DNA of 53,606 bases, taken from contig JBKCUU010000067.1 in NCBI GenBank assembly GCA_046318155.1, positions 1 through 53,606 of the forward strand, given 5' to 3'. The first letter of the stretch is position 1, and every line of letters begins with the position of its first letter. The stretch is from Bdellovibrio sp. (lineage in GTDB: Bacteria; Bdellovibrionota; Bdellovibrionia; Bdellovibrionales; Bdellovibrionaceae). The notes under the pieces were generated by a model. That model saw only the letters and a program-made list of their open reading frames with translations, searched no databases and was not told the DNA's origin. Below, piece by piece: positions 1 to 7,603 of this stretch. The position numbers were made by a program, and so were the translations under genes.

Positions 1-1
1 G

Positions 2-619
2 AAGATTGTTGAAGTTCTGACGTTTTTAGAAACGAATGGAGTTAAGCCCAAGGCCAAAAGGGAAAGAAAAAAGGGAGCAAAAACCGAAAGAGCATTTTTG
101 TTCTATCAAATCTCCCGCTTAGACTTTGCCGTAGATTATGAAGCTAGTTTTGATTTGATAAAAATACTTAGCGAAGGGATCGGCTATCACCGATTCTTTA
201 CGGGAATTCAAAAAGATTATTTCTACCGAACGATTCACGACAATATACGATTGGACAAAGATCAGAGGATTCATCGCTTCAAAGAAATGAAGCTCGGGAA
301 CAATGGCTTTGAGCTCGCAATTTATTCGAAGAAAATTGAAATTGCCGAGAATGCGACCGCAGAAAAGCTAACATTGTATCCAGAAATCTATCGAGAAATT
401 TTGTCGGATAAAAAGCGACTACTGTTTCGTGTTGAACTCAGGCTATTTAGGTCTAGAAGTATCGCCTTTAATTCATTGAGTGCGAATGAACTTTGGGAGC
501 TTCCGAAAATAGAGCTTGTTCGATTCGGAAAGACCGTCCGTCTTTTGAAAAGAAAAAAACATAAAATTATTCAGAGTCGGCTTTTTTTCCAGCTTTTTTC
601 CATGGCGGATTCCATTTAA
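2..619 (+). CDS. Rep_trans-family rolling-circle replication initiator/relaxase, 5'-truncated by the window edge
   Basis: Frame is open from position 2 (KIVEVLTFLETNG...). Motifs SRLDFAVD, IYSKKIE (candidate catalytic Tyr) and FRVELRL occur in Rep_trans order. Confidence 0.7.
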   Translation, partial: KIVEVLTFLETNGVKPKAKRERKKGAKTERAFLFYQISRLDFAVDYEASFDLIKILSEGIGYHRFFTGIQKDYFYRTIHDNIRLDKDQRIHRFKEMKLGNNGFELAIYSKKIEIAENATAEKLTLYPEIYREILSDKKRLLFRVELRLFRSRSIAFNSLSANELWELPKIELVRFGKTVRLLKRKKHKIIQSRLFFQLFSMADSI

Positions 620-635
620 AATTAAAGGAGTATTT

Positions 636-866
636 ATGAGCGGTTCATTAAGAAGTATTGAGCAAATAACGGAAAATTCTATTCGATTTATCAACGAGCA
701 AATCAACGGCATCGATTGGAATAAAAAATGGCAGACAGATTATCCAAAGACGGAGGTTGCCAAGGCTGAATTTGAAAGTCTTAAGAAGCCAGAAGTAAAA
801 GAGGCTGTTAGGGAAGTTTTTAACGAAAACTCACTCGCAGTTTTAAAACTAAGCGAGGTGTTTTAG
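636..866 (+). CDS. Small hypothetical protein (76 aa), possibly antitoxin-like
   Basis: AAGGAG RBS upstream; stop overlaps the next start (TAGTG); C-terminal amphipathic helix. Confidence 0.65.
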   Translation: MSGSLRSIEQITENSIRFINEQINGIDWNKKWQTDYPKTEVAKAEFESLKKPEVKEAVREVFNENSLAVLKLSEVF

Positions 867-1381
867 TGAAAGCCGTTAGATTTACTAAGTTAGACGAAAC
901 AAAAGACTACCCAATAGATTACATTCTCAATTCTGAGGGCATTGAAGAGGCCGTAGGCTGTTGTCCCAAATCATTTTTCAATTTCTTTGGGTTGCTCGGG
1001 GTCATTGAAGGACTGAACTCGGAATTTCTTCTTTGGTTAAAAGGAGAACTTCAAGAGGACGACAAAACTCTGATTACTCCGCCAGAAGGGATTAGGAATT
1101 TCGCAAGGAATGGTATTTTTGAAAAGATTGATTGTGGTGCTGGATTCACAAGACACATTCCAGCTCCCTCGTTAATTCGAAGCCTTCACGACGGTTGGGT
1201 TCTTTTCACAGTGCTTCTAAAGCAAGGTGCGGAGGACCCTTCCCATTGTGTGGTCTTTTATATTAAGGAGGGCAAGTTGTTCGCTGACGGAGAAGAAATC
1301 TCCCTTCAAATATTTACCCAAAAAGTCTACTGTCATGAAATGAATCGCTTTATCCTCGGAAAAAGAAAAGCGAGGGATTAA
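866..1381 (+). CDS. Hypothetical protein with papain-like (C39-like) Cys-His-Asp pattern
   Basis: GCCPKSF (Cys32/33), SHCVVF (His127) and LFADG (Asp141) are in papain-fold order; coupled to the upstream ORF. Confidence 0.55.
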   Translation: MKAVRFTKLDETKDYPIDYILNSEGIEEAVGCCPKSFFNFFGLLGVIEGLNSEFLLWLKGELQEDDKTLITPPEGIRNFARNGIFEKIDCGAGFTRHIPAPSLIRSLHDGWVLFTVLLKQGAEDPSHCVVFYIKEGKLFADGEEISLQIFTQKVYCHEMNRFILGKRKARD

Positions 1382-1560
1382 CCCTCGCCTTGGTTCTCAA
1401 GCACTTTCCTGAGATAGTTGATATTGATAGAAATTGCGGAGCCTTGATTCAGATACACCAGAACATTTCCTGTTCGAGTCATGCGAATCTTATGAAATGG
1501 CACGAAAGCCAAGCCTCGTTTCGATTCCAACTCCTGTTTCTTGTCGACTTTCTTATTCAT
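1378..1560 (-). CDS. Small basic hypothetical protein (60 aa)
   Basis: AAAGGA RBS upstream of ATG; lies downstream of a structured non-coding region. Confidence 0.55.
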   Translation of the reverse strand: MNKKVDKKQELESKRGLAFVPFHKIRMTRTGNVLVYLNQGSAISININYLRKVLENQGEG

Positions 1561-1585
1561 AAAAATTTCCTTTCTTTTGTTTCAA

Positions 1586-1748
1586 CCCTCTTGGGGTGTT
1601 CGCAGAACAATGACACCCAGAGGGGCTAGAAACTCAGCGAGCAATCGCCAGAAGAAAAATGTACGAAGACCTGCGAGTGGCATAATCCTGTGAAAGCTTG
1701 CTGGCACACGGTTAGTGCTTTAACGAGTAGCCATTGGTCTGGCGATTG
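1586..1748. other. Structured non-coding region with nested inverted repeats; candidate single-strand origin, ssDNA promoter or ncRNA
   Basis: CCCTCTTGGGGTGT (1586-1599) pairs imperfectly with ACACCCAGAGGG (1613-1624). Perfect 11-bp IR CAATCGCCAGA (1642-1652) / TCTGGCGATTG (1738-1748) encloses smaller hairpins. Confidence 0.5.
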
Positions 1749-1797
1749 AGAGTGGTATGGAAATTTGAAGTGGTAAGCACGACGAAGATTTGATTTG

Positions 1798-2277
1798 TCA
1801 TTCGGATGATCCTAGTTGCGCCTTAAAGAGTTCATTCTTCAGAGTGAGCGTGTGTCCAATGCTTTCACTTATTAGATACCAAGTGTCTCTCTGTTGAACG
1901 GAAAGTGTTTTGTCCAACGTTTTGTAAAATAAGCCGAGCCAGCGGGCTAAAAGTTCATCGTTGAAGCCAGCTTGAAAATGCTTGGGAATTGGATTGTAGG
2001 GGTAGCGAACTTCAAGTTTTCCGCCAAATTTAATCCACCAGAAATTAGTCATCAGTTCTATGTGATGGTTCCAATCAAGAACTGTAGAAAAGGGAACCTT
2101 CAGTATTTCGTCTGCTGCCACAGCTCTATAAAAATAGTCAACAACTCGCTCGATGTCGGCAAAGGAAAAAGCTACGCCATTGATAGCGATTACCTCGGCT
2201 CGCAATTTCCGAATACAAGTTTCATCTGGCAATTTTTTAATTTCGCAGACTCCTGCCGCACAGCTATCATCAGTCAT
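1798..2277 (-). CDS. Group III truncated hemoglobin (2/2 globin) with N-terminal Cys-containing extension
   Basis: VDYFY...D.IL...F, W..H...MTNFW, P.PKH and F...L.RWLGLF motifs; ATG at 2277 overlaps the upstream stop (ATGACTGA). Confidence 0.85.
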   Translation of the reverse strand: MTDDSCAAGVCEIKKLPDETCIRKLRAEVIAINGVAFSFADIERVVDYFYRAVAADEILKVPFSTVLDWNHHIELMTNFWWIKFGGKLEVRYPYNPIPKHFQAGFNDELLARWLGLFYKTLDKTLSVQQRDTWYLISESIGHTLTLKNELFKAQLGSSE

Positions 2278-2572
2278 CGACGATCCCAATCTGAAAGACT
2301 CGATCAAGGCGTATTTGAGAAGAATCTGACATCGTCAAAAACTCTTCCTTGTCTTTCGTGAAAATATCGATGATTTGACCCGTGCAATCCATCAGCTTCC
2401 CATTTGAGTTCCAGTATTTGACTTCGACTCGGATTTGTTTAACTGACACGAACTCAAGCTCGTCTGTGAAATCACAGTCTACTGGTTCATAAACCTTAGC
2501 CAAGTCCGCGAAGTTTTTAAAGGGACCCTGAAGTACTTTGGATTTTGTTGATGGAAAAACTGTTTTATTCAC
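2270..2572 (-). CDS. rof: Rof/YaeO-like Rho-binding antiterminator
   Basis: YEPVDCDFTDELE and EEFL...IRLDRV resemble the Rof signatures YQPINCDDYDNLE and VEYL...LRLDKI. Confidence 0.7.
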   Translation of the reverse strand: MNKTVFPSTKSKVLQGPFKNFADLAKVYEPVDCDFTDELEFVSVKQIRVEVKYWNSNGKLMDCTGQIIDIFTKDKEEFLTMSDSSQIRLDRVFQIGIVDD

Positions 2573-2581
2573 AACTGCTCC

Positions 2582-2902
2582 TTACTTACCGCCGGCGAAT
2601 ATAAATTGGTTAAGATCCTCGATGTTTTCAAATCCGATTTTAATTCTTTTTCTACCTGTAGAGTCTATTTTAAAAAAGGCCGGCACACCAACTAGGCCCA
2701 ATTTCGAAGGCAAACCGGGTTCATCATCAATTGAAACTTCAAAACAATTGATCGCACCTGTGCTTTCGGGAAAACCCGCTTTCTTCATTTCTCGTTCTGC
2801 GATTTGGCAGTACTGGCATCCCTGCTCCTTAATAAAAAGCAAGGATGCCTTTCCTGTTTCAAAAAACTTTATGAATTGCTCCAACGAAATCCTCTGAAAC
2901 AT
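2582..2902 (-). CDS. Thioredoxin-family protein (CQYC)
   Basis: CxxC motif, cis-Pro motif GVPAF, 106 aa. Confidence 0.85.
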   Translation of the reverse strand: MFQRISLEQFIKFFETGKASLLFIKEQGCQYCQIAEREMKKAGFPESTGAINCFEVSIDDEPGLPSKLGLVGVPAFFKIDSTGRKRIKIGFENIEDLNQFIFAGGK

Positions 2903-2932
2903 TTGATGACCTGCCTTCGCCGAAGCTTTTCT

Positions 2933-3655
2933 TTATTTTTCGGTTTTCTGAACCGTACCGGGAAGACTTAAATCGCCAGAAGCAATCTTAAAAATATTCT
3001 CGATGCATAGAAGCGGCGCATGGACCGATTCGTTTACTCGTAGCCCCGATGTAACGCCGTCGAATTTAGAACTTTCAACCGTAGCAATATTGTCGAACGG
3101 AACTTTGACGATCACTTTTTTTCCTGAAAATTTCGGCGGATATCCGGGACTGTCTATAAAGAGCGGCACTCCGGGCCAAGTCTTCGGAAGTTTCGGCTTT
3201 GTTCCTTCAGCGATGTCTTTGACCTTCATTCCCTTGGCACCGCAAGCTTCATCGGGAGTAAGTACCACCCAGTGAGTATGCCACTTTGATCCATCATTTT
3301 CAAAAAGAGGGGTATCATTGAAATCAGGGTGAACTGTCACTGCCAAAGCTAAAATTCCTGACTTTCCTTCGAATCCGACTTCGCTTGGATCAATTGAGGT
3401 CGGCCAAACATACGAGAACACTCGAGCACCGGCAAATTTGCCGGATTTTTTTGGCTTTTCCTGACCCGCTTTACCGCTCACTTCGATTTCAAAAGTAGCG
3501 ATATTTCCTTCGGTCTTAATGGTTGTGCGAGTGATGTCGAAATCAGGTTTCACTTTCTTATCAGTTTTAGTATCAATTCCATGCGCAATGGCGGAGGCCC
3601 CTACGAAGAGAAAGCCTGTCGCTAATTTAAAAGCCGATGTTTTGATGTTTTTCAT
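2933..3655 (-). CDS. Exported hypothetical protein with possible His/Asp metal ligands
   Basis: Signal peptide ending AIA-H; HPDFNDTPL and WHTHWVVL motifs; coupled to the redoxin gene. Confidence 0.75.
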   Translation of the reverse strand: MKNIKTSAFKLATGFLFVGASAIAHGIDTKTDKKVKPDFDITRTTIKTEGNIATFEIEVSGKAGQEKPKKSGKFAGARVFSYVWPTSIDPSEVGFEGKSGILALAVTVHPDFNDTPLFENDGSKWHTHWVVLTPDEACGAKGMKVKDIAEGTKPKLPKTWPGVPLFIDSPGYPPKFSGKKVIVKVPFDNIATVESSKFDGVTSGLRVNESVHAPLLCIENIFKIASGDLSLPGTVQKTEK

Positions 3656-4161
3656 TTTTGTTTCCTTTCAGTTGGTGTTTTATAAATTGAACTCGGTTCG
3701 GAATCTGTTGAATAAAGAAGCCTCGAAATCTCTGCACCTAAAATTAAGTCCTGCATTTGCCCGAAGATGTTCGCTCGCAGTTCTCCATTTTGATCAAAGA
3801 TCAGCCAGCTCGGGGTTCCTTGCAGTTGAAAGTGCGCCATGGTTTTTGGAATCTCAGAATTCTTAGATGGCTCATCGATTCCCACCGGAAACTTGACGCG
3901 AAATTCGTGCAGAAAAGCCTTTAGCGAAATTTCACCCATGGCTTCGTGATGTTCGAAAACCGTATGAAGGCCAAGCACAGCTACTTTTTCCTGTTTAAAA
4001 GTTTCAAAAACCTTCTGGGCCTGGGGCACTCCGTGAAGAACGCACCCAGGACAAAGCATCTGAAACGCATGAACTAAAACGACCCTTCCTTGCAGGTCGT
4101 TTAAAGAAAAATCGTCTGTAGTGCCGAGCCACTTTGAAACGGTGAGGTCTTGGAGTTTCAT
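3652..4161 (-). CDS. Redoxin/TlpA-like thioredoxin-fold protein
   Basis: LQGRVVLVHAFQMLCPGC, LGLHTVFEHH and GTPSW motifs. Confidence 0.85.
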   Translation of the reverse strand: MKLQDLTVSKWLGTTDDFSLNDLQGRVVLVHAFQMLCPGCVLHGVPQAQKVFETFKQEKVAVLGLHTVFEHHEAMGEISLKAFLHEFRVKFPVGIDEPSKNSEIPKTMAHFQLQGTPSWLIFDQNGELRANIFGQMQDLILGAEISRLLYSTDSEPSSIYKTPTERKQK

Positions 4162-4162
4162 C

Positions 4163-4699
4163 TTATCGAAGACTCACTTTTGGAAAATCAAGCGGCACAT
4201 CAAAGGCAACGTTTGTGTAGTTTGTAAAAATATTGAGCGCAACGTGAGCTAGAATCTCAGCAATGTCTTCTTCTGAATACCCCGCTTTTTTAAGAGTCGA
4301 AATATCGTCAGGAGAAACATTGGCTCGCTCTTTGACTAACTTTACCGCGAAGTTCAATGCCGCTTGTATCTTGGGGTCAGACGACTTGCCACCTTGTGCC
4401 TGGCTCATTGTTTCAGAGGTTAGACCAGCGCCTTTGCCAAGAGCCGTGTGGGCCGCTAAGCAATATTCGCAGCGATTAAGATCTGCTACGGCGACCGCAA
4501 TCTGCTCGCCAAGCTTTGCGCCCAGTTTCCCACTACCTAGGGCACCAAACGCTGACCACATCATTTTTAATGCGGGGGTCGAGTTGGCAATGGCCTTAAA
4601 CATATTCGGCGTTGTTCCAAATGCTGTATTGATTTGAGAAAGAATTTCTTTTCGTTCTCCGGTCGCAGTTTGAGGGTTCTGAAGTTCAATTCTTGGCAT
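4163..4699 (-). CDS. AhpD/CMD-family peroxidase-related protein
   Basis: EQIAVAVADLNRCEYCLAAH core; GGAG RBS. Confidence 0.9.
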   Translation of the reverse strand: MPRIELQNPQTATGERKEILSQINTAFGTTPNMFKAIANSTPALKMMWSAFGALGSGKLGAKLGEQIAVAVADLNRCEYCLAAHTALGKGAGLTSETMSQAQGGKSSDPKIQAALNFAVKLVKERANVSPDDISTLKKAGYSEEDIAEILAHVALNIFTNYTNVAFDVPLDFPKVSLR

Positions 4700-4736
4700 A
4701 GAGGTCTCCTTATGTGCCTTTAAGGCGGTTTATATA

Positions 4737-4755
4737 TAGTTTAGCTTCTAAACTA
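4737..4755. promoter_or_regulatory. Perfect inverted repeat, probable MarR operator 1
   Basis: TAGTTTAG-CTT-CTAAACTA just downstream of the predicted operon start site. Confidence 0.7.
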
Positions 4756-4762
4756 ATGTTCA

Positions 4763-4813
4763 AAGATAGACTAAGATTTTTAACTTGTCAAATAAGTTTA
4801 GATTCGATACTAT
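4763..4813. promoter_or_regulatory. Divergent sigma70 promoters with overlapping -35 boxes
   Basis: Minus strand: TTGACA (4791-4786)-17-TATCTT (4768-4763). Plus strand: TTGTCA (4785-4790)-17-TACTAT (4808-4813). Confidence 0.7.
4794..4812. promoter_or_regulatory. Degenerate operator 2 overlapping the marR -10 box
   Basis: AAGTTTAG-ATT-CGATACTA has the same 8-3-8 layout as operator 1. Confidence 0.6.
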
Positions 4814-4819
4814 TTAAAT

Positions 4820-5371
4820 ATGGCAAATCAAATAAATGCCGTGAGTCAGTGGCTTGAACGACTCTCAGCAGTTCACAGAAATTTAATGAGACGCTTTGCA
4901 AATGAAGAAGGGCTTCAGCTTGTTCACGTTGAGATTATGCAATATCTATCGGTGAGCAACCGCTACTCCGACGCCACGCAAGCTATTTCTGAATATTTGG
5001 GCCAAACCAAAGGGAGTATTTCACAAAGCCTAGGCCTTCTTGAAGAACAGGGGTTTGTCAAAAGAACACAAGATAAAGTTGATAAGCGGATTTTTCATCT
5101 CTCTCTCACGTCAAAAGGGTCAGCCGTAACTCATCGCATGTTCGCCAGTATCGACCTTGAAGGTGCAGATGAATTGGAACCAGGCCTTAAGATTCTGCTC
5201 ACTTCTATTCAAAAGAAGAACGGGCTTCGAGGCTTTGGAACGTGTATCTCATGCAGATTTAACCAGAACCCTGGAAAAAATGTTTTTGTTTGTGGACTCA
5301 CCAAAGAGAAACTGACTTTGGAAGAAACAAAAAAGATTTGTAAAGAGCATGACGAGACCGCAAACGGTTAG
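4820..5371 (+). CDS. MarR-family regulator with C-terminal four-Cys domain
   Basis: wHTH (ISEYLGQTKGSISQSL...GFVKR...DKR...LSLT.KG) plus CISC...C...C tail; divergent from the redox operon. Confidence 0.9.
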   Translation: MANQINAVSQWLERLSAVHRNLMRRFANEEGLQLVHVEIMQYLSVSNRYSDATQAISEYLGQTKGSISQSLGLLEEQGFVKRTQDKVDKRIFHLSLTSKGSAVTHRMFASIDLEGADELEPGLKILLTSIQKKNGLRGFGTCISCRFNQNPGKNVFVCGLTKEKLTLEETKKICKEHDETANG

Positions 5372-5508
5372 TCTTATGTGTGTTGGAAATAACGTCAGAT
5401 GGATACGCTGAGTTTTTCCGGATTAAAGTGCCAATATTTCGACGAAATTGCCAGTCTTGATCAAAACTAGGATCGCAAAGCTGTATGATCATGTTCTAAC
5501 CTCTGCAT

Positions 5509-6804
5509 CTAAGCTCTCTTCTTGGGCTTGAATACGGTATCGTCCGACTGTCGGTCGTCTCTCAAATATTTCATTGTCGTTTCGATATTTGAGTGCGAGA
5601 CGGCCAACATGACCTCTCTAGGCTTATGTTCGTCTAAGCTCTTTGTTATGAATGTTCTGCGAAGGTCATGTAGTTCATAGGACATCTTGAGCCGTCTCAT
5701 TAGGCTGGCAAATTTCACTCCGAGAGTATCAGGGTGAATTCTTTTGGCAGCACCTTCCTCAACAAGTTCGTAAGCCTTTTCCTTCGTCAGAAACCAATGC
5801 GGTGTCTTTCTGAAGTCTCTATCCTTCAAAGGCTTAAACGAACACTCACCATTGCCATTCGATTTTGAAATTTGTCTTTCAATCGAAAGATGACCATTGC
5901 GAACATCTTCAACTTGGAGACCAAGAGTTTCGCCTCGACGAAGACCGTAATAGTAGCCGAGTCGGATGAAGCAACCAATATCTTGGGGAAGTTCTTTATC
6001 GATTTTTTTCCAATCGTTGTCAGAGATGAACTGTCCGACTTCTTCGCCGTCCATTTCCTGACGAGCAAGATAGTCTTTCAACATCGCACTACTGATTGGA
6101 GTGAATTTAAAAAGAGGAATTTCTTGCGGATTCTTTTCATGGATAAATACCATGAAGCGATTCGCTAAGTGAATTAGTCCCTTGATTGTCTTGTAAGACA
6201 TTTCTTCTTCAAAAATATTAAACTGCTTTTGGTCAGCAGGCAATCGGCGGAGCAAAGCAAGTCCCCAAAGAGCTTGCTTAGTCTTCCATTCATTTGGGTC
6301 AATCAATCCACATAAGTCGACGAAGAATTTTAAAAAGTAGCGATGAAGATTTCGGTAGTGGTAGCGAGCATCTTTCTCAGTCGGAATTTCATTTTCCAAG
6401 AGAATCCGAAATTCTTCGAGAACTTCTGTAGGAAGAAAAGCCAATTTCGCCTTAATTGCCTTGAGCTTTTTCCAGCTCTCACGACCATTTAAACGAATGA
6501 CCAAATTCTCAATTTCTTCTTTTGATTTTAGATGCTGATATTTCGAGGCAGGATAGCGAGATGAGCCTTTGGTTTTCTTATCTCCATCGAGAACATAGAA
6601 ATATCGGCGAACGAAGTATTTATACTTCTTCTCATTTTTATCGCTAGATTTATCTTTGCTTACATCACTAAGTTTTACTTCTTCCTTAGCAACGAAGTAA
6701 TCGCCCCAAATTTTCTTTTCCACCCAGAAGTTATCGGTGGTTAGGGCTTGAACATCAAGTCTTGAGAGTAGTCGTAGCTCCCAAGACGAACATCTTGAAG
6801 CCAA
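5509..6804 (-). CDS. Tyrosine recombinase/integrase; N-terminus uncertain, possibly frameshifted from 6741-7016
   Basis: GLRRGETLGL, HDLRRTF and SHSNIETTMKYL catalytic motifs; adjacent to tRNA. Confidence 0.9.
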   Translation of the reverse strand: MASRCSSWELRLLSRLDVQALTTDNFWVEKKIWGDYFVAKEEVKLSDVSKDKSSDKNEKKYKYFVRRYFYVLDGDKKTKGSSRYPASKYQHLKSKEEIENLVIRLNGRESWKKLKAIKAKLAFLPTEVLEEFRILLENEIPTEKDARYHYRNLHRYFLKFFVDLCGLIDPNEWKTKQALWGLALLRRLPADQKQFNIFEEEMSYKTIKGLIHLANRFMVFIHEKNPQEIPLFKFTPISSAMLKDYLARQEMDGEEVGQFISDNDWKKIDKELPQDIGCFIRLGYYYGLRRGETLGLQVEDVRNGHLSIERQISKSNGNGECSFKPLKDRDFRKTPHWFLTKEKAYELVEEGAAKRIHPDTLGVKFASLMRRLKMSYELHDLRRTFITKSLDEHKPREVMLAVSHSNIETTMKYLRDDRQSDDTVFKPKKRA

Positions 6805-7016
6805 TCACGAGTGTGAAAATCAGAATTTTCTAGGATAAGTTGCTTCATTCGGCGACCTTGAAAATCATCAACTGACCGCTCTATTAGAACTTTTAAAGCC
6901 CTACCAGAAACGAACACAGAGTCGTTTTGAATTTCAAAATCACGATTCTCGAGAAGAGTTTTAACTGAATCCGAGATGAAAGTTGGTAGGTGGATACCGT
7001 TTTTATTTTTTCGCAT
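6741..7016 (-). CDS. 91-aa ORF overlapping the integrase start; probable integrase N-terminal part or accessory protein
   Basis: ATG with AAGGTG RBS; ends CCC TAA while the integrase frame (-1) is already open. Confidence 0.5.
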   Translation of the reverse strand: MRKNKNGIHLPTFISDSVKTLLENRDFEIQNDSVFVSGRALKVLIERSVDDFQGRRMKQLILENSDFHTRDWLQDVRLGSYDYSQDLMFKP

Positions 7017-7067
7017 ACCACACCTTGTTTTTCGAATCGCTATAACCTTTTGAATTTACTAAGAAAT

Positions 7068-7144
<77 letters not shown>

Positions 7145-7399: not shown

Positions 7400-7603
7400 A
7401 TGAAAACAATGTTGTTTGGAATGGTTTCGATCACCGCGATCTTTTTTGCTTTGTCACTGTCGTCGTGTGCGAGCGGGCACAAACACCACGGGCACAAGTG
7501 CGCTTGCTCGGAAGGGAAAAAGGCTGACCAAGGCTGCAAAGGCTGCGAAAAAAAATCGGGCTGTGACAGCTGCGAAGTTAAGGACGAAGAGAAGAAGCCT
7601 TAA
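7400..7603 (+). CDS. Small His/Cys-rich lipoprotein (metallothionein-like)
   Basis: Signal peptide with lipobox LSSC, then HKHHGH, CAC, CKGC and CDSC. Confidence 0.65.
   Translation: MKTMLFGMVSITAIFFALSLSSCASGHKHHGHKCACSEGKKADQGCKGCEKKSGCDSCEVKDEEKKP

Follow-up and report, generated by a model that had tools for sequence, protein, structure and literature searches.

The window described here, 53,606 nucleotides of Bdellovibrio sp. (assembly GCA_046318155.1, contig JBKCUU010000067.1, which is contig C67 within a 2.75-Mb genome), carries a six-gene operon in which a divergent homolog of the Rho inhibitor Rof (YaeO) is encoded together with redox enzymes, opposite a MarR repressor with four C-terminal cysteines. 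On alignment, this MarR is a homolog of PqrR, which acts as a redox-sensing repressor in Pseudomonas aeruginosa, where the pqr operon also holds a Rof gene. What appears to be new, judging by the open-licence literature, is PqrR-type control of Rof in two phyla, on separate branches of the Rof family. With moderate confidence, we read the locus as a mobile, modular PqrR-type oxidative-stress cassette, in which oxidation of the metal-cysteine center of the repressor would induce both detoxification enzymes and a Rho antagonist. A preliminary description of this DNA had proposed a new system in which oxidants induce a Rho antagonist. Because the MarR is a PqrR homolog and the pqr operon has its own Rof gene, the second half of that proposal is now better supported, on independent grounds, while the first gives way: the regulator and the type of regulon are already described in P. 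aeruginosa (through a review, PMC8466533), and the window holds a Bdellovibrionota variant of the PqrR regulon.

Results

The repressor and its operators

The six minus-strand open reading frames (ORFs) and the divergent four-cysteine MarR are all present where the preliminary description had placed them, with the motifs and the tight spacing it had reported (Table 1); the intergenic gaps across the six are 1, -4, 30, 9 and -8 nt. The MarR is 39% identical (E 2e-39) to the pqrR product of P. aeruginosa, and its four cysteines are aligned in 19 of the 19 homologs compared. In PqrR-type MarR proteins these C-terminal cysteines presumably form the redox-sensing metal center. Hallmarks of the type found in the window are a MarR winged helix followed by four cysteines, a divergent operon with a thioredoxin-fold gene and Rof, and paired operators. 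For P. aeruginosa we presume that paraquat is an inducer, that the PAO1 tags are PA0939-0942 and that PqrA is the name of the Rof gene. The redox signaling of PqrR reportedly passes through an iron-containing group, to go by the title of Rungrassamee et al. 2009.

The P. aeruginosa locus was recognized in record L106 (NZ_CP131792.1), whose coding sequences have the lengths of PA14_52060-52130 (717, 561, 234, 255, 327, 192 and 1329 nt); PA14_52070 is labeled pqrR in the supplement of PMC7950407. The 327-nt coding sequence, equal to PA14_52110, is the Rof gene (ROF E 5e-26; 91 bits in Pfam) and takes third place in the operon divergent from pqrR (L106:3054-4561), among the housekeeping neighbors purMN, hda and lpxO2. 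PqrR represses pqrABC, and both PqrR and PqrA are induced by H2O2 (review PMC8466533).

The two operators that had been pointed out are real. Both are found again at matching offsets in other loci of Bdellovibrionota, with the operator 1 site at the same position in L001, L006, L032, L045, L047, L065, L066, L068, L134 and L142-144. For a matrix trained on 20 sites, all of them at other loci, these operators are the two best-scoring sites of the 2.75-Mb genome (26.0 and 24.9 bits, the next site scoring 16.8), and the island that carries the operon has no other strong site. The arms of operator 1 are equaled in 48 of 2000 shuffles of the 120-nt spacer. Operator 1 follows the -10 box of the operon and operator 2 covers that of marR, an arrangement that would fit repression in both directions, operator 2 presumably serving marR autorepression. 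Promoter-like sites are as numerous in shuffles as in this region, so the support for the operon promoter rests on a position conserved across loci. The marR gene is apparently leaderless in the window (4808-4822) and in several Bdellovibrionota loci; its gammaproteobacterial homologs carry a Shine-Dalgarno sequence.

The preliminary description had named HOCl among the oxidants to try as inducers. In the HOCl/HOSCN data of the PMC7950407 supplement, the Rof gene PA14_52110 goes from 38.8 to 24.9 and 35.9, and from 36.2 to 29.1 and 31.8, and pqrR and PA14_52080/52090 change about 0.7-1.2-fold, while the control PA14_07355 rises 46- and 97-fold with HOCl and 492- and 404-fold with HOSCN. Because the PA14 homologs fail to respond, HOCl and HOSCN are rejected as inducers. 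Contigs from RNA libraries, which are not proof of transcription, include segments of hisX, redoxin and ahpD in X15 and the junction of trx with hisX in X17; coverage in runs X3 and X4 takes in the island and hardly any of the host flank, the uncovered part proving nothing.

A divergent Rof homolog

The assignment of ORF 2270-2572 to Rof, made in the preliminary description, stands as homology, although the protein does not reach Pfam's own threshold. It matches ROF (PF07073) at E 3.8e-4 with 21 bits, under the gathering cut-off of 27.6, which its near relatives P0013, P0024 and P0025 clear at 27.8-28.4 bits. A profile of the Rof clade finds the Rof structures 1sg5, 8w8d and 8ptm in PDB at E 3e-7 to 6e-7, with the next match at E 0.94. 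The expected Sm-like fold, with an N-terminal helix, is found as well, and among the fold matches Rof ties with WYL and Hfq. The Sm-like look-alike FljA was ruled out as an identity (no PF03614 match at E up to 1).

Residues C33, D34, D37, E40 and E77 correspond to E. coli C10, D11, D14, E17 and E50, and all are kept. Tyr13, required for Rho binding by E. coli Rof (PMC11018626), is replaced by Thr36, and because of this replacement the protein is filed as a divergent Rof homolog and not as the equivalent of E. coli Rof. Among 149 relatives, 46 have His or Thr at the position, and these include Rofs of Pseudomonas and Citrobacter scoring 91-101 bits in Pfam (the L106 protein has His). Elsewhere in the Rho-binding helix, and in the EE and RLD motifs, there is almost no variation, and a Phe beside the lost Tyr may substitute for it. 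Host Rho (G000:C64:8689-10626) keeps the contact segments around S82-F89, K105 and L114-K115; it also has a low-complexity N-terminal extension of about 200 residues ahead of the conserved domain.

The preliminary description had seen a special retention in the cysteine of the PVDCD motif. This residue, Cys33, is E. coli C10 and is present in 145 of the 149 relatives; the second cysteine (64) is not conserved. Fusion of Rof to redox domains was considered and dropped, the six long matches examined carrying GNAT, HAD, MobA-like or no named domains. Rof-like domains stand behind GNAT, HAD or MobA-like domains in P0032, P0085, P0124 and P0161.

Recurrence of the pairing

In a 42-row Rof tree (72 columns, midpoint root), E. 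coli Rof and the pqr-linked Rofs of Gammaproteobacteria fall together, and the Bdellovibrionota, Bacteroidota and Nostoc sequences form a side apart from them (support 100/96). Because the tree splits these two branches, the window rof is not recently derived from a pqr operon; repeated recruitment and a very old linkage would both fit the tree. A single origin for all PqrR-linked Rofs was rejected by the approximately unbiased (AU) test (p 0.018) on 35 of the 42 rows; the other seven were near-copies, were broken or aligned poorly. This test carries little weight, since Bdellovibrionota copies without the linkage fall inside groups of linked ones and the alignment has only some 72 columns.

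Within a phylum sample of 401 genomes, the Rof profile occurs in 16 and the MarR in 8, the host being included in both counts; one of the 16, G281 (E 6e-5), was later dropped as having no tblastn match. Leaving out the host, rof is found in 15 of the 181 genomes of its family and a PqrR-like MarR in 11, both together in 4 and adjacent in 3, so that rof adjoins 3 of the 11 PqrR-like genes. The Fisher p of 0.007 for this association (4/11 vs 11/170) is overstated, because related genomes are not independent. In 4/14, 2/8 and 11/16 loci of three sets, which overlap and contain near-copies, rof has a cassette gene no more than 3 kb away.

The gene combination put forward in the preliminary description thus recurs in part: rof is repeatedly found with the cassette, but a fixed six-gene unit is not, the exact order being seen only in a copy of 98% identity. 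Genome G404 has the same order, marR divergent from ahpD-redoxin-hisX-trx-rof, and its group III globin lies behind marR; in G169, of another family, a protoglobin replaces hisX, and G349 has a globin of group I type (a group label given by inspection). Three globin classes occur under the same type of MarR. Many cassettes lack rof, and many rof genes lie outside cassettes, for example between rpoB and rplL. The cargo of the cassette is modular. In one Bdellovibrio genus (L002, L003, L004, L005 and L039) rof sits in opposite orientation between rplL and rpoB, followed in 4 of these 5 loci by an ABC1-kinase-like gene.

A plasmid search with the MarR finds marR divergent from glutaredoxin-rof in an Enterobacter/Citrobacter IncHI2 lineage, whose 56 near-identical records represent one event. 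In L071 (IncHI2, conjugative), MarR-grx-rof and a nearby CMD gene lie within a chromosomal-type segment that runs from uspE to tyrR. The arrangement marR divergent from grx/trx-DUF2024-rof is found in Lelliottia, Enterobacter 638 and the P. aeruginosa record, the last with chromosomal-type neighbors; in all, three enterobacterial plasmid records besides P. aeruginosa show the grx/trx-(DUF2024)-rof layout, with related operators. DUF2024 is present in L105-L107 and not annotated in L071, and Pfam finds none among the window ORFs. Two single cases are a Nostoc plasmid on which a four-Cys MarR, a rof-like frame and a globin gene fall inside 3.3 kb, and a Comamonas plasmid with a rof-like frame after msrB and grxC. 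Rof relatives in phage were sought narrowly: viral_contigs gave 35 pattern matches and 0 confirmed, and the P. aeruginosa Rof protein found no relative in 50,697 phage records. Searches of the open-licence literature gave no sign of a link between Rof and PqrR or any MarR, or between Rof and Bdellovibrio; subscription papers may note the link. Five supplement files of PMC11018626 make no mention of "pqr", "MarR" or "Bdellovibrio", and one table includes a P. aeruginosa Rof.

A tRNA-integrated island

The mobility ascribed to the locus is borne out. GC content is 42% over bases 1-7067 and 50% for both the remainder of the window and the genome, and the island ends in an integrase beside the 3' end of a tRNA gene, the same element being present in a second host. 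In that genome (G499, of another genus), the right part of the island has 96% DNA identity and the integrase is 99% identical, against only 75% identity for rho, and the island is joined to tRNA-Met with an upstream flank unlike that of the host. The G499 contig is short (4957 bases) and misbinning is possible, but its flank differs from that of the host regardless. By these comparisons the island has moved between genera. A second att copy, or duplicate of the tRNA 3' end, was not found in the assembly, in which the contig start falls inside the island and the left end beyond it. A single contig from an independent study covers 1-7092 with 78 differences. Cassettes L040, L047 and L064 likewise adjoin integrases or transposases. 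Just outside the island, at 7400-7603, is a small lipoprotein-like ORF rich in His and Cys.

Table 1. Features of the cassette and its island (window coordinates)
Feature	Position	Strand	Remarks
Three island ORFs without family match	1..1381	+	GC 40%; island runs past contig start
Group III-like truncated globin, chimera	1798..2277	-	First 26 codons (2199-2277) from 5' end of yggS-like gene
Divergent Rof (YaeO) homolog, Bdellovibrionota clade	2270..2572	-	Conserved 23-residue N-terminal extension; Thr36 at E. coli Tyr13
Small thioredoxin-fold protein (CQYC)	2582..2902	-	Optional cassette member; weak Pfam/NCBIfam thioredoxin matches, E 0.03-0.14
Probably exported protein (hisX)	2933..3655	-	Widespread family without a name; beta-sandwich with middling matches to DOMON-like folds
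TlpA/redoxin-family thiol-disulfide oxidoreductase (CPGC)	3652..4161	-	PF00578 (AhpC-TSA) E 2e-8; PF08534 (Redoxin)
AhpD/CMD-family peroxidase-related protein (CEYC)	4163..4699	-	PF02627 E 8e-14; TIGR01926 80.2 bits vs cut-off 81.8; TIGR00778 above cut-off
Operator 1, 19-bp palindrome	4737..4755	.	Just downstream of operon -10 box; perfect 8-bp arms
Predicted sigma-70 promoter of operon	4763..4791	-	10/12 match; -35 box overlaps -35 of marR promoter (4785-4813, +)
Operator 2	4794..4812	.	Overlaps marR -10 box
PqrR-type MarR repressor, C-terminal CxxC...C...C	4820..5371	+	Pfam MarR_2 E 6e-9; mRNA probably leaderless, -10 box ends 4813
Tyrosine integrase of island	5509..6804	-	PF00589; phrog_1; 99% identical in G499
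Small ORF between tRNA and integrase, function unassigned	6741..7016	-	99% identical in G499
tRNA-Met(CAT)	7068..7144	-	3' end is junction with island

Exported protein and globin

The exported protein matches no Pfam family and no PDB sequence. Its family, of at least 3639 clusters, has four invariant His and two invariant Cys, and these suggest a metal or heme site. In Alpha- and Gammaproteobacteria, its members adjoin redoxin, AhpD or a four-Cys MarR. WD40 matches met elsewhere in the searches were dismissed as noise.

For the globin, the best PDB sequence match is the group III truncated hemoglobin 2ig3 (E 0.0098), with which the residues we take to be Tyr B10, His E7, His F8 and Trp G8 are aligned; it has no Pfam family match, and its relatives match Bac_globin weakly. 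Comparison of loci makes this gene a recent chimera, with a leader from the yggS-like gene that lies 3' of rof in relatives. The same Cys-rich leader is carried by a yggS-like ORF or stub in L044, L048, L049 and L134, and in L040 the DNA is common with the window up to 2199 and then diverges. A programmed rof-globin frameshift was rejected, because the stop is kept in relatives and the yggS remnant accounts for the overlap. The yggS-like (pyridoxal phosphate-binding) ORFs with an N-terminal CxxGxC leader are found 3' of rof at L044:1139-1405, L048:1296-1814 and L049:947-1258; Cys-rich tails like this leader also end some Rof and redoxin relatives (P0015, P0024-P0026), and the enterobacterial pqr-rof loci L105 and L107 have yggS nearby too.

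Discussion

The favored reading of the cassette can be set out as follows. A MarR dimer would bind the two 19-bp operators, as their position and conservation indicate, and shut off the operon as well as its own gene. Once oxidized, its four-Cys metal center should, by homology to PqrR, free the operators, and a single transcript would then supply thiol-repair and peroxide enzymes, a putative metal- or heme-binding exported protein, a globin and the Rof homolog. The most likely target of the last is the primary RNA-binding site of host Rho, where it would dampen termination while oxidative damage uncouples translation from transcription. Rof would be controlled at transcription through the repressor, and not by a thiol switch of its own.

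Loss of Rho binding is the main rival to the Rho-antagonist reading. The locus would then be an ordinary PqrR-type redox regulon whose Rof homolog no longer acts on Rho, either as an Sm-fold protein with another RNA or protein partner or as a passenger. In its favor are Thr for Tyr13 across the clade, a conserved N-terminal extension, a score below the Pfam cut-off, a fold tied with WYL and Hfq, and the frequent lack of rof in the cassettes. It is harder to square with the near invariance of the other helix residues and the EE and RLD motifs (the neighboring Phe perhaps replacing Tyr13), with the occurrence of His or Thr at this place even in Rofs of 91-101 bits, or with the binding site kept in host Rho, and we think it unlikely, if deserving of serious attention.

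Two further proposals of the preliminary description appear improbable to us. One is that the thioredoxin sets the redox state of Rof Cys33 and thereby gates antitermination. A thioredoxin- or glutaredoxin-fold gene does lie upstream of rof in both phyla, C10S halves the toxicity of E. coli Rof, and V. cholerae Rof dimers are stabilized by iodoacetamide/TCEP (PMC11018626). The cysteine is, however, a family-wide Rho-contact residue, making a van der Waals contact to Rho in E. coli Rof (PMC11018607), and for this reason gating by thioredoxin is unsupported; moreover, the second cysteine is unconserved, and eight rof cassettes (L001, L006, L008, L013, L045, L047, L050 and L055) have no trx match. 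The other proposal, to which we give equally little credence, is that Rof rides on the island to relieve its AT-rich genes of silencing by Rho, as P4 Psu might, to which a coupling of excision to stress could be added. Nothing was found for de-silencing of the element itself, though the low GC content of the island and the integrases or transposases beside L040, L047 and L064 speak in its favor. Yet the P. aeruginosa pqr-rof genes sit among housekeeping genes, many Bdellovibrio rof copies are in core regions, the island mRNAs are not C-rich over G, and the island has no further strong operator.

When cells need Rof, and how its expression is controlled, are named as open questions by Said et al. 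2024 (PMC11018626). The presence of a redox-sensing PqrR-type repressor gives a lead on this for an entire class of rof genes, with oxidative stress suggested as one of the long-sought signals for turning Rof proteins on. The timing and the means of Rof induction become testable, directly in laboratory P. aeruginosa. Said et al. also describe Rof as restricted to Pseudomonadota (PMC11018626), outside which the window protein lies; homologs now extend to Bdellovibrionota, Bacteroidota and a Nostoc plasmid, and the window Rof provides a natural variant without a residue thought essential for Rho binding. A broader scenario, offered tentatively and as rather doubtful in its entirety, is that PqrR-type sensors have been coupled twice to Rof antiterminators (in Gammaproteobacteria and Bdellovibrionota, perhaps also in Nostoc), that oxidant-induced shutdown of Rho would be a recurring stress strategy, and that the Bdellovibrionota clade would inhibit Rho by way of an altered contact surface (Phe/Thr plus an N-terminal arm for Tyr13) while spreading between predatory genera on integrative islands.

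Comparison with known systems

The closest known system is the PqrR/pqr operon of P. aeruginosa, in which a four-Cys MarR likewise faces a divergent operon that includes a thioredoxin-fold gene and has Rof at or near its end, and two related 19-bp operators occupy the same positions. It differs in that the window has AhpD, redoxin, the exported His protein and a globin in place of DUF2024, that the window Rof belongs to another branch of its family, and that the cassette is on a tRNA-integrated Bdellovibrionota island. In Citrobacter, Enterobacter and Lelliottia, too, a Rof gene ends the operon divergent from a pqrR-type marR. The AhpD/redoxin MarR cassettes of Alpha- and Gammaproteobacteria (Rhizobium, Leisingera, Vibrio and Lelliottia plasmid records) have the same exported His protein, together with redoxin or AhpD, beside a four-Cys MarR but, unlike the window, no rof match in those stretches. 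Psu of phage P4 is a Rho antagonist that serves the element's own genes. It resembles the window Rof in being a Rho antagonist on a mobile element (and is also named in PMC11018626), but it is an unrelated protein, and the window Rof is under a stress repressor. With the Rof/YaeO of E. coli and Salmonella (PF07073; 1SG5, 8PTM, 8W8D; PMC11018626, PMC11018607), the window protein shares the Sm-like fold, the C10/D11/D14/E17 helix, EE/EY and RLD; it differs in its identity of about 19-20% in structural alignment, in Thr for Tyr13, in its 23-residue N-terminal extension and in not being coupled to yaeP.

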